Positions 3,601 to 6,600 of a stretch of 19,068 nt of DNA are shown piece by piece. A program made the position numbers. The stretch is from IMG/VR virus record IMGVR_UViG_2529293141_000023. One strand, written 5' to 3'. Each line of letters opens with the position of its first letter. The first letter of the stretch is position 1. Source of the DNA: a virus. Lineage: Duplodnaviria; Heunggongvirae; Uroviricota; Caudoviricetes.

Positions 3601-6600
3601 TTCCAACAGAAAGCGAAAGCGGCAAAGACCAATGACGGCGACGTCGATTTCAACGTGGTGTTTGATACCGCCCCGCTAGATTTTGAGCTTGACGCCTCAG
3701 CCGGGGCTAATGTGTATGCCCAGCTTTCGAAGATTCGCCGCCAACTGGTGAAAGAGTACGGCGCATCCCGTGCCTATCTGGAGCGATTCTTCTGTTTCGC
3801 ATCCCCGGATCTGTATGACGCTTTAGCGGGTCACCCTGAAGTAACCAGCCTGATCACTAACAAGGTGGCAGAGGCGGCACGTGGTGCGCTGATCCCGGTT
3901 AACACTGCGGGCTATGACAGCTTCAGCATTGGCAACATTACTTTCATTCTGGCGGACGATGACCGCTACGAGATTGAAGAGGGTTCCGGCCTGTTCGTTC
4001 CTAAGTTCTCCAGTGCTGATCGTAACCCGTTCAAACTGGTGCGCGGCCCGGCTTCCCGTAATCAGGATATTGCCGCTAAAGGCGTGATCAGCCCGTACTA
4101 CCAGAAAGTGATGGTTGACCGTTACAACATGGTAACCATCCATCAGGAATCAAGTCATATTCCTCTGGTACTGCGTCCGTCCTACCTGCTCAACGTTAAG
4201 TTGAAGTAAGGCAGCAAGTAACAGACTTTAAGCCCTGGCATTGCTGGGGCTTTTTACCATTTGAGGTGAGTAGTGAAGATTAGCCTTAACATTCCAGCCT
4301 TGGGAGAGGTGTACACCTCAACCAATGCCGACGTGATCAACCGTTCAGCCCTGGCGCGTAAGTTGGGGATCGATCAGGTGTCTCTATGCCGCTATGAAAA
4401 ACAGTACGGCTTTGAGCGAGCGTTAAAAATTATGTTGGAGAAAAAGAAACTCCGGCAGATTATTGGGAAGTAATAAAAATTCAACGGGCTAGCCTTTATG
4501 GGCTAGCCTTTTTTATTGGTTGGGGCCTGTGGCGTAAAGGTTATATAAAGGGGAAAACAATTCCTTTCATGGAGAGGCAAAAGAACAAAAATCATTATTG
4601 TCTTTGTTGATGATAGCCTTTCGAACATTCGATCATATAATTAAACATTTCTGACAACATTCTATCTTTAGATACCTCTACTTTTTGTATTTTCTGATGA
4701 CTTCCAGATGTAAGCTGTGAGTTCAATCTTGTAGTGCGGGCATCATAGTAATTTTCACCAGGATAAAATACATAGTGAAAGATAAAACCTTCAGCTATAA
4801 AATACCATCCAATCCCATTGATACTTTCAATCTCACCAAAAGCAAAGTTCGTGAGGACCGATTTGATGACATGATCAGGAATATTGCCAGTGCTATCAAC
4901 AATCCGTAGCACTCTAATCTTGATAAAATTATCAATTTTAACCTGACTCTTATTATTAAACCTAACAATGTTATTTTTAATGCAGTGCCTCATCATCTCT
5001 CCAAAATCAGGATTCCCTACCACCGAAGAATAATGCAGGTCCATAGCATTAGAGGCTCTCCATAGTATGGATAATAGAAATAGATAAAAGCGCTTGTAAT
5101 CGAAGTTGCTAATAATAATGTGATCAGAGTTCTTTCTAATGTTGTGAGGGTTTCTTAGCAATCTGATCCCATAAGACTCGTATTGACCACTAAGAAATTG
5201 TTCGCATTCAAAACATAGCATTGGTTCTTTAGGATCTAAATTTTCTCTTCTTGGTTCCCTTCCTTTTTGCATAGAGATAACTTGACCGCCGTTTCCTTTT
5301 GCTTTGTTAAAGAAACTTCTAGGGATACTGTGTGATTCCTGAAGTTCTTTTGCTTCAAGACATAACTTACAAACACCATCCATAAAACCTCCTATATCTC
5401 ATAATTGAAATTCAAGATTTTGACTAATATTTCTCTTCATTCATTAAACTTCTGAGATGGCGTAACTCATTTGTACAGCTTCGTGCCTCTCTTACTTCGT
5501 TTTCTAACATAACTATTGAGGGTTCTGCCGATTCATCCTCAAAAATTTTTTCTGTTAGACTAACAACCCTAAATAATGTCCATCCAGAAATAATAGCAAG
5601 ATCTAGGAGTGGCTCTTCGATATAGGCATCGCCTGTTCTTTTATTCCTAAGTTCACCATGCCATCTTGGATTTCTCATGAATGAAGGCTTATCACCCAGC
5701 GGTAATAAATATCCATGAACCAAACTATTCCTATAATCAGCCAAATCAATAGCAGCGAGAGAAGCAAGATTTAAGACTGTATTACATTCATTGCTAAGTT
5801 TATCATTACCATTTCCCAAATACTCGAACCATTTATCAGATGGCAATTTTTCGGTAAAGGGCCTAACTCCTTTTACATCAATCTCTCTCAGAGTCCATAA
5901 GGCACGCTCCAAAGTTGTTTCAAACTGACCATAACAAACAACAAAAGCCCCGATCTTCATTAATCTTTCTGGGGTTAAGTGTAATGCAATGAATCGACTG
6001 ATAACTTTAAATGATTCTTCCTCGTAATTTTTAACCATAGTGCCGTCCTTTGATCCATACAGGTGCTTAACATCACATGAAATTTTTTATGATTTTACAA
6101 CTAACTAGGTCACAGACAATAGCATCCATAAAGCCCCGTTAGTGGTAAGGAGACAAGTGAAGCCGTTAGGCGACTGCATCAGATTGTCAGAGGGATCACA
6201 CCTTATCAGGGTGCTCGTGTACCGTTAGGAGCGTGAGCGAAGCGCTGGCAGAGCCGGATCTGTAGCTACCGGGGCATTACCACTATTCACCTGTTTACGT
6301 GGCTTATAGGGCCACACATCGGGCTTAAATGCGTGTGATCAATCTGTTTGGGAGTTGTGCCAGGTATGCGGCTTTTTGTTCGTTGTTGTGCTGTCGCGGT
6401 AAGAACGTGGAACCACCGCCAGCGTGATGATATGCTCCCTTGTACCACAGACCAATCACGCGACAGGTGCGGGCGTAGAACAATGGGTAGTTTAAGTTGT
6501 ACCTGCTTTAGCGGGGCAACGTAACTAACTGATAAATCGTAACTTCTTGATTTATCAGGAGACTGGAGCGGGCGAAGGGAACAGAACAACAAGCCATGCC

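Follow-up and report, generated by a model that had tools for sequence, protein, structure and literature searches.

Low-GC cargo slots at a fixed position, in which unrelated small gene sets replace one another, are known as defence hotspots of P4-like satellites, of P2-like phages and of phage-inducible chromosomal islands (PICIs) (Rousset 2022; Tai systems paper, PMC11364771), and a recognised hotspot of immunity lies upstream of the packaging module (PMC11364771). DUF4238 from the P2 hotspot has been validated as a one-gene system against T7 (Rousset et al. 2022, PMC9122126). Stand-alone HEPN proteins of the abortive-infection (Abi) and RNase type, including the RiboL-PSP-HEPN, MAE_28990, C6orf70/DUF4209, Swt1-like and Abi-type solo proteins, form a further comparison group (Anantharaman et al. 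2013, PMC3710099). In the HEPN layout, the motif ends helix-3, an acidic residue lies in helix-2, an insert separates the two helices and a polar residue follows the Arg; HEPN proteins are often the toxins of toxin-antitoxin systems (PMC3710099). The locus described here is a pair of adjacent genes, A and B, at positions 4486-6120 of the 19,068-nucleotide virus record IMGVR_UViG_2529293141_000023 from IMG/VR (Caudoviricetes), the whole of which is called the window. Uncharacterised candidate defence genes in satellite hotspots are by now a familiar kind of finding, and the main question for this locus is whether A and B belong together.

The original prediction had taken A and B as one candidate two-gene module that pairs a HEPN-motif protein with an HNH-like protein. 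A new HEPN and HNH two-gene system is not supported; A and B are best read as independently mobile single-gene modules that were put side by side by recombination. The two genes are as follows.

5424..6038, minus strand: gene A, 204 amino acids (aa), a stand-alone type of protein with putative HEPN-type active-site residues E40, R103, N104 and H108
4595..5383, minus strand: gene B, 262 aa, with an N-terminal zinc-ribbon and His-Me-finger-like module
within gene B: a predicted helix bearing Y96, S105, W108 and R109, followed by an alpha/beta C-terminal domain

After a metagenome scan, hidden Markov models (HMMs) of both families were compared with all open reading frames (ORFs) of 121 loci, in which about 100 B loci represent 62 B lineages at 90% identity. 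A adjoins B only in the window and in loci L001, L041 and L042, which are copies of one element with B 99-100% identical. The remaining 61 B lineages are without A, and 16 further A loci are without B. The closest relative of A (77% identity) lies in a related satellite that has no B, the relatives at 60-63% come after a McrA-like HNH gene and a gene for a 208-aa protein, and the distant ones stand alone in Pseudomonas, Comamonas, Chromobacterium and other genera. The closest relative of B (87%) has upstream of it a gene encoding a 191-aa protein with two transmembrane (TM) helices and a zinc ribbon. In 27 of the 62 B lineages, an upstream ORF of 100 aa or more lies within 150 bp in the same orientation, and these ORFs belong to 24 unrelated families. 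At least 20 of the 55 assessable lineages have no such ORF, so that B is solo there; seven lineages were unassessable. The upstream partners of B were considered as possible A-like proteins and ruled out by BLASTP and hhalign, and the 242-aa HNH protein of L010, considered as B-like, was ruled out on comparison. From these sequence comparisons, A and B are not a conserved two-gene pair.

The cassette occupies a slot in which shuffling of cargo is well documented. Two features define its surroundings.

6117..6424: non-coding region, conserved in related satellites, where it stands before the cargo slot whatever the cargo
6564..6587: attachment-site (att) repeat of 24 bp, the 3' end of tRNA-Gly, between element 1 and element 2 (the two integrative elements of the window)

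The region at 6117..6424 is 84-85% identical to its counterparts in L010, L021 and L043, with partial matches in L018-20 and L026. The same region heads A and B in the window, L001, L041 and L042; the gene for the protein with TM helices and zinc ribbon (TM-Zn-ribbon), followed by B, in L026 and L036/37; the McrA-like HNH gene followed by B in L043/44 and L051-54; the McrA-like HNH gene, the 208-aa gene and A in L010-13 and L021; and A alone in L018-20. Since varied cargo stands behind one region, the slot shuffles five or more cassettes. Homology breaks off at gene boundaries. L026 matches the window at 4588-5371 and 6082-6216, and thus A exactly replaces the TM-Zn-ribbon gene while the promoter and B are kept. 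L018-20 match 5425-6352; therefore the promoter and A are common to these loci and the window, and B is absent from them. The slot resembles the hotspots of P4-like satellites, P2-like phages and PICIs in its low GC, its fixed position and its exchange of unrelated small gene sets, one of which includes a McrA-like HNH restriction-type gene. Unlike the canonical P4 hotspot or the described PICI hotspot, its place is the att-proximal end, next to a capsid gene. Comparison of the slot cargo with PADLOC-DB v2, made for A and B only, gave no match. The satellite defence hotspot assumed in the original prediction is therefore borne out as a shuffled cargo slot behind a conserved upstream region.

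Several other proteins were observed in or near this slot. The McrA-like HNH protein (242 aa, PF01844; 4440-5168 in L010) occurs there in two combinations, one with the 208-aa TM protein and A and the other with B. The TM-Zn-ribbon protein, of 187-191 aa, combines two TM helices with a zinc ribbon at the C-terminus (CPxC...CxxxGC) and lies upstream of B in L022, L026, L027, L036, L037 and L047-L049. A family of 211-221 aa with an N-terminal TM helix (L014:5332-5967, L018:3818-4474 and L037:3329-3994) precedes B in Cronobacter, is also found away from B in A- and B-carrying satellites, and is another mobile cassette.

The upstream neighbours of B in other lineages include TIR_2 (3e-25), SieB (3e-28) and AbiTii (5e-32), as well as DUF2971, Imm49, McrA-like HNH, a class III cyclase, a GGDEF protein and HTH-IrrE. 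In phages, B is located between antiterminator Q and the lysis genes (L031) or upstream of packaging genes; in three phage contigs (L025, L033 and L034) it lies 0.3-2 kb upstream of terminase genes. B is also present in chromosomes without nearby phage genes (L028-30, L038 and L040). A defence role is plausible for both genes from such genomic associations, which are strong for B and moderate for A. Two other upstream neighbours of distant B homologues carry HEPN-style motifs and are unrelated to A by hhalign: a 153-aa ORF 295 bp upstream of B in L091/L092 (YRNFLIHE) and L034:2960-3979, 18 bp from B (FRDVVCH).

A two-component Abi system, in which B would be the constant sensor or adaptor and the upstream gene a swappable effector, is unlikely. 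The distribution speaks against it, as A is beside B in one of the 62 lineages and on its own both in many genera and in the most closely related satellite, and B is solo in at least 20 lineages, phage moron sites included. The precise swap of A for the TM-Zn-ribbon gene with retention of promoter and B is in its favour, as are the 40-bp spacing of A and B with no terminator between them and the enrichment of effector domains (TM, TIR_2, SieB and HEPN-like motifs) among the upstream neighbours of B. However, the 24 upstream families also include the known autonomous defence genes SieB, AbiTii and McrA-like HNH, and this speaks against a dedicated partner because defence-island stacking predicts just such a varied pattern. 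A two-gene arrangement is also favoured by the TM-Zn-ribbon gene, which among the upstream partners of B is the sole one to recur across divergence, the identities being 59-94% for B and 52-96% for the partner. These two genes may be a genuine two-gene unit, the first gene of which was replaced by A in the window.

The homologues of A are stand-alone hypothetical proteins of about 200 aa from Enterobacterales, Pseudomonas, Vibrio, Shewanella, Comamonas and other genera. The family is small: a set of 1.84 billion representatives contains 174 of its clusters at 50% identity. A carries R103-N-S-L-V-H108-G-Y, the Rx4H motif on which the HEPN assignment had been founded. By a rough estimate, a lone Rx4H would occur by chance in about one in four proteins of 204 aa; the motif of A goes beyond chance because it is invariant across the family, not because it is present. 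In an alignment of relatives at 20-45% identity (alignment A3), only E40, R103 and H108 are invariant, each in 52/52 sequences. Position 104 is N or H in 51/52 sequences (40 with N, 11 with H) and R in the remaining one, E44 is Glu in 49 and Asp in 3, and G109 is kept in 50/52. The spacing of the acidic residues is E-x3-E, not the typical E-x3-[KR].

The AlphaFold2 (AF2) model of A has a mean predicted local distance difference test (pLDDT) score of 83.8, and the topology was called from its secondary structure alone. E40 and E44 fall in a predicted helix (23-51), an insert follows (52-82), and R103..H108 lie at the end of the next helix (83-108), after which a beta-hairpin and a helix (144-163) are predicted. 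This arrangement of helices, motif and insert agrees with the HEPN layout (PMC3710099). When members of the family were compared with Pfam singly, the sole recurring sub-threshold theme was families of the HEPN superfamily, namely DUF4209 (the C6orf70 HEPN family), HEPN_RiboL-PSP, HEPN_MAE_28990 and HEPN_Swt1. No HEPN model of Pfam came above threshold for members of the family, the best E-values being 0.0026-0.06 from single members. Scans of Pfam, NCBIfam, PADLOC and PHROG gave no family for A, Foldseek found no HEPN structure, and PDB profile searches with A1, A2 and A3 returned only spurious matches to designed repeats and low-complexity sequence. From its motif and predicted topology, and with all matches below significance, A very probably represents a new family of the HEPN superfamily.

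A shares with the stand-alone HEPN proteins the R-x4-H motif, the N or H after the Arg, the upstream Glu in the preceding long helix, a motif that closes a long helix and the inter-helix insert; it is likewise a solo protein, about 200 aa long, that mobile elements carry. Elements of its own, beyond those of the group, are G-x-RP-x-T-[ED], W-x-G-E-x-R-[KN]-[KR], a C-terminal N-x-E-K-Y and the beta-hairpin after the motif. One homologue (L007) adjoins a DNA methyltransferase among TniB/TniQ-like genes, recognised by eye, in a Tn7-like context, and the homologues in L002 and L003 are placed after ParA/ParB-like genes. Contexts of both kinds, DNA methyltransferase/Tni-like and ParA/ParB-like, are also listed for these HEPN families (PMC3710099). 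A search of B and of the other neighbours of A for a minimal nucleotidyltransferase (MNT) partner gave no match.

The B family comprises about 400 clusters at 90% identity, nearly all of 240-270 aa, and is distributed in Enterobacterales and in temperate phages of Acinetobacter, with Bacteroidota and Patescibacteria indicated by record titles. H18, L101, S105 and R109 are invariant in 133/133 sequences, the cysteines C5, C8, C57 and C60 are each kept in 131-132/133, and W108 in 132/133. Positions 61 and 69 are acidic throughout the 133 sequences, position 61 being E in 112 and D in 21. The motifs C5xxC8, ES-H18-SIP and C57xxC60 are present in B. The four cysteines fit the two CxxC pairs of a predicted structural zinc site, and H18 stands directly after the predicted strand 11-17, that is, at the end of the first beta-strand. 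The canonical Asn/His helix ligand after the second CxxC is absent, position 62 being Q, N, H or K, and the acidic residue 61 could be a substitute metal ligand. The predicted model of B is confident (pLDDT 92), and no solved structural relative was found for it.

Sub-threshold matches to HNH_5 (PF14279) were obtained for 10/34 B members, with scores of 11-18 bits where the cutoff is 27.5. Residues 5-23 of B correspond to positions 1-22 of HNH_5 and, in one member, residues 46-68 correspond to positions 25-48. Both halves of the profile match in order, and B would therefore have a split finger with an insert of about 30 residues. With HNH_5 and other His-Me-finger nucleases (PF14279; e.g., the T5 SciA nickase and Gme HNH), B has in common the order CxxC...H...CxxC, the invariant His that ends a beta-strand and the second CxxC that starts a helix. 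The zinc-stabilised HNH/His-Me N-terminus put forward in the original prediction thus holds for the cysteines and H18, and at sub-threshold level for HNH_5; the GNGG motif that had been included in it is present in B and is not conserved across the family.

Neither the A nor the B family is represented in the curated libraries searched. Scans of Pfam, NCBIfam and PADLOC gave no family for B, and only three PHROGs of unknown function matched it; ten distant B members compared with Pfam gave nothing useful. PADLOC-DB v2.0.0 (2023) contained no family for A or B at E<=10, and 34 B members were without a consistent match in it. Literature searches by the protein accessions and PHROG ids of A and B found nothing. 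Among the checks proposed in the original prediction, the HMM comparison with HEPN and HNH families thus gave recurring HEPN and HNH_5 matches, all sub-threshold, and the PADLOC comparison (PADLOC-DB v2.0.0) and the structure comparisons returned neither a match for A or B nor a HEPN structure for A nor a solved relative for B. Its remark that no characterised system with this pairing could be named agrees with the lack of a match in Pfam, NCBIfam and PADLOC-DB v2, and is weakened for B by a faint colinear similarity to DUF4238.

Two clusters of the B family are named "DUF4238 domain-containing" by UniRef. The DUF4238 alignment used for comparison consisted of nine bona fide proteins, one from the supplement of PMC9122126 and eight from plasmids. 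HHalign of the B family against DUF4238 gave probabilities of 10.4% (E 0.003) and 17.6% (E 0.0014) over 28-29 N-terminal columns, and the aligned stretch is the motif H-x-[IV]-P-x-x-[YF]-[LF]-[KR], which both families share at the N-terminus. A greedy alignment of the two families is colinear over 228 columns and places H18, E69 and R109 of B on H8, E73 and R107 of DUF4238. The weak signal needed the nine-protein alignment; the B family gave no signal against a single DUF4238 sequence, and PF14022 (DUF4238) had no match in 34 B members at E<=1 nor in B itself at E<=10. B and Rst_DUF4238 are both autonomous proteins of about 260-310 aa in phage and satellite hotspots. They differ in the four-cysteine zinc ribbon, which is found in B, and in the TSDNP and W199 motifs, which are found in DUF4238 only. 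B may be a distant, zinc-ribbon-bearing relative of DUF4238, which is a lead, not proof, and given this colinearity B is probably not wholly unprecedented.

A broader scheme would join this link to the variable neighbours of B. B would then be the constant sensor or adaptor of an unrecognised modular two-gene Abi family, with TM-Zn-ribbon, TIR, SieB-like or HEPN (A) proteins as effectors, and B and DUF4238 would form one superfamily with a His-Glu-Arg core and a fold without a solved relative. This combined scheme is quite unlikely.

The window contains two integrative elements in tandem at one tRNA-Gly site. Element 1, which bears the cassette, extends to 6587, where homology to L001 ends inside tRNA-Gly, and is 99.8% identical to an island of about 15 kb in E. 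coli LR-29-1. The order in that island is integrase, a gene annotated "major capsid protein", B, A and tRNA-Gly. The cassette DNA was found in only 2/5426 complete E. coli genomes, adjoining the major-capsid gene and tRNA-Gly. Element 2 (6564-19068), whose homology begins at 6564, is a widespread P4-like element that encodes a DUF927 primase (12749-14887), an integrase (17815-19068), antiterminator Q, PerC, ProQ/FinO and SSB. In element 1, the protein encoded at 3133-4209 (plus strand) is annotated as a major capsid protein, with a weak Phage_cap_E match in related loci, and a small gene at 2802-3185 (plus strand) lies upstream of it. The part of element 1 that was examined contains no evident portal or terminase gene.

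The transcription and translation signals of the cassette are as follows.

6119-6092, minus strand: sigma-70-like promoter candidate, TTGTCT-16-TAAAAT, a consensus match only, at a position that fits an A-B transcript
6046-6050, minus strand: ribosome-binding site of A, AAGGA, 7 nt before the start of A
5388..5393, minus strand: ribosome-binding site of B, AGGAGG, inside the 40-bp A-B spacer and 4 nt before the start of B
4486..4509: terminator-like hairpin that closes the cargo transcription unit and also ends a convergent 66-aa gene (4273-4473)

Most of the original description of this unit was accurate. The coordinates, lengths and strand of both ORFs and the 40-bp gap between them were exactly as given, the ribosome-binding sites are in place, and the GC content is low as stated, at 0.367 for A, 0.351 for B and 0.357 for 4515-6120, with flanks of 0.524 (2500-4485) and 0.484 (6121-8100). 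The promoter-like region contains the sigma-70-like site listed above, and such sites show no above-chance excess across the region (6 found, 6.4 expected). The hairpin has 10 pairs on the plus strand followed by the T-run TTTTTATT, and 8 pairs with a weaker T-tail on the minus strand, so the term "bidirectional" applies to it only in part. No terminator-like site was found on the minus strand of the A-B spacer, and co-transcription of A and B is therefore likely. The order of promoter, genes and terminator, together with the low GC, gives the A-B unit a moron layout. The stem at 4486-4509 is itself a direct repeat of the near-palindrome GGGCTAGCCT, the central 8 bases of each copy being self-complementary. 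The conserved region, assessed as a structured RNA over 6120-6440, had no match in Rfam and folding z-scores of +0.8 and +1.1. CCGTTAG occurs three times on the plus strand (6136-6142, 6163-6169 and 6222-6228), the copies being clustered within 93 bp inside this conserved non-coding region, which adjoins the cargo promoter on its upstream side. These are its sole copies in the window, a total count not above chance, and the cluster may be a regulator-binding array.

It is moderately probable that 4486-6120 is the variable, att-proximal cargo slot of a tRNA-Gly satellite, filled by a low-GC, moron-like unit with two independent candidate defence genes. A capsid-gene-bearing satellite integrated at tRNA-Gly would carry the unit in this slot, and transcription would run from the promoter near 6092-6119 through A and B to the terminator at 4486-4509. 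A would be a metal-independent HEPN RNase that uses E40, R103, N104 and H108 and probably acts as a dimer, like other HEPN enzymes. Activated on infection, it would cut host or phage RNA and thereby cause growth arrest or abortive infection. In B, the four-cysteine zinc ribbon would wrap the invariant histidine in an HNH_5-like His-Me arrangement, and the protein would bind and nick or cleave nucleic acid, with the His-Me-like module (H18, E61 and E69) for catalysis and the S105/R109 helix and C-terminal alpha/beta domain for recognition or target sensing. The two genes would be co-transcribed in this operon and act independently. We infer these enzymatic activities, the anti-phage role and the independent action.

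Roles in the satellite life cycle would make B a nuclease that is associated with packaging or interferes with the helper, in the manner of HNH proteins assisting cos terminases, and A an RNase that acts on helper-phage expression. The location of the cassette in a satellite, adjoining a capsid gene, the position of B near terminase genes in L025, L033 and L034 and the weakly HNH-like N-terminus of B would fit such roles. In related satellites, however, the slot occurs without B (L018-20 and L010-13) or without A (L026, L036 and L043), and therefore neither gene is a core satellite function. B is also found between Q and the lysis genes and in chromosomes with no phage genes nearby, and packaging HNH proteins are of about 100-130 aa with a canonical HNH motif. 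Life-cycle roles are thus very unlikely. Highly improbable is stabilisation of the island by a toxin-antitoxin or addiction module, with A as HEPN toxin and B as antidote or the reverse: HEPN proteins are frequent toxins of this kind (PMC3710099) and a mobile element carries the unit as a compact two-gene operon, but no MNT-type or other conserved cognate partner was found, A is usually alone and therefore not an unneutralised constitutive toxin, and B has 24 unrelated upstream families or none.

If either gene protects against phage, it would define a new single-gene defence family. For A, that family would be compact and made up of solo HEPN proteins, with about 174 clusters at 50% identity; for B, it would be broader, with about 400 clusters at 90% identity and a confident predicted fold that has no solved relative. 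B could also give a first mechanistic handle on DUF4238, the anti-T7 activity of which is validated and unexplained. The slot, with its at least five cassettes recombining at gene boundaries, offers a natural experiment for distinguishing multi-gene systems from stacked single genes, and the locus warns against reading two adjacent small hotspot genes as one system.

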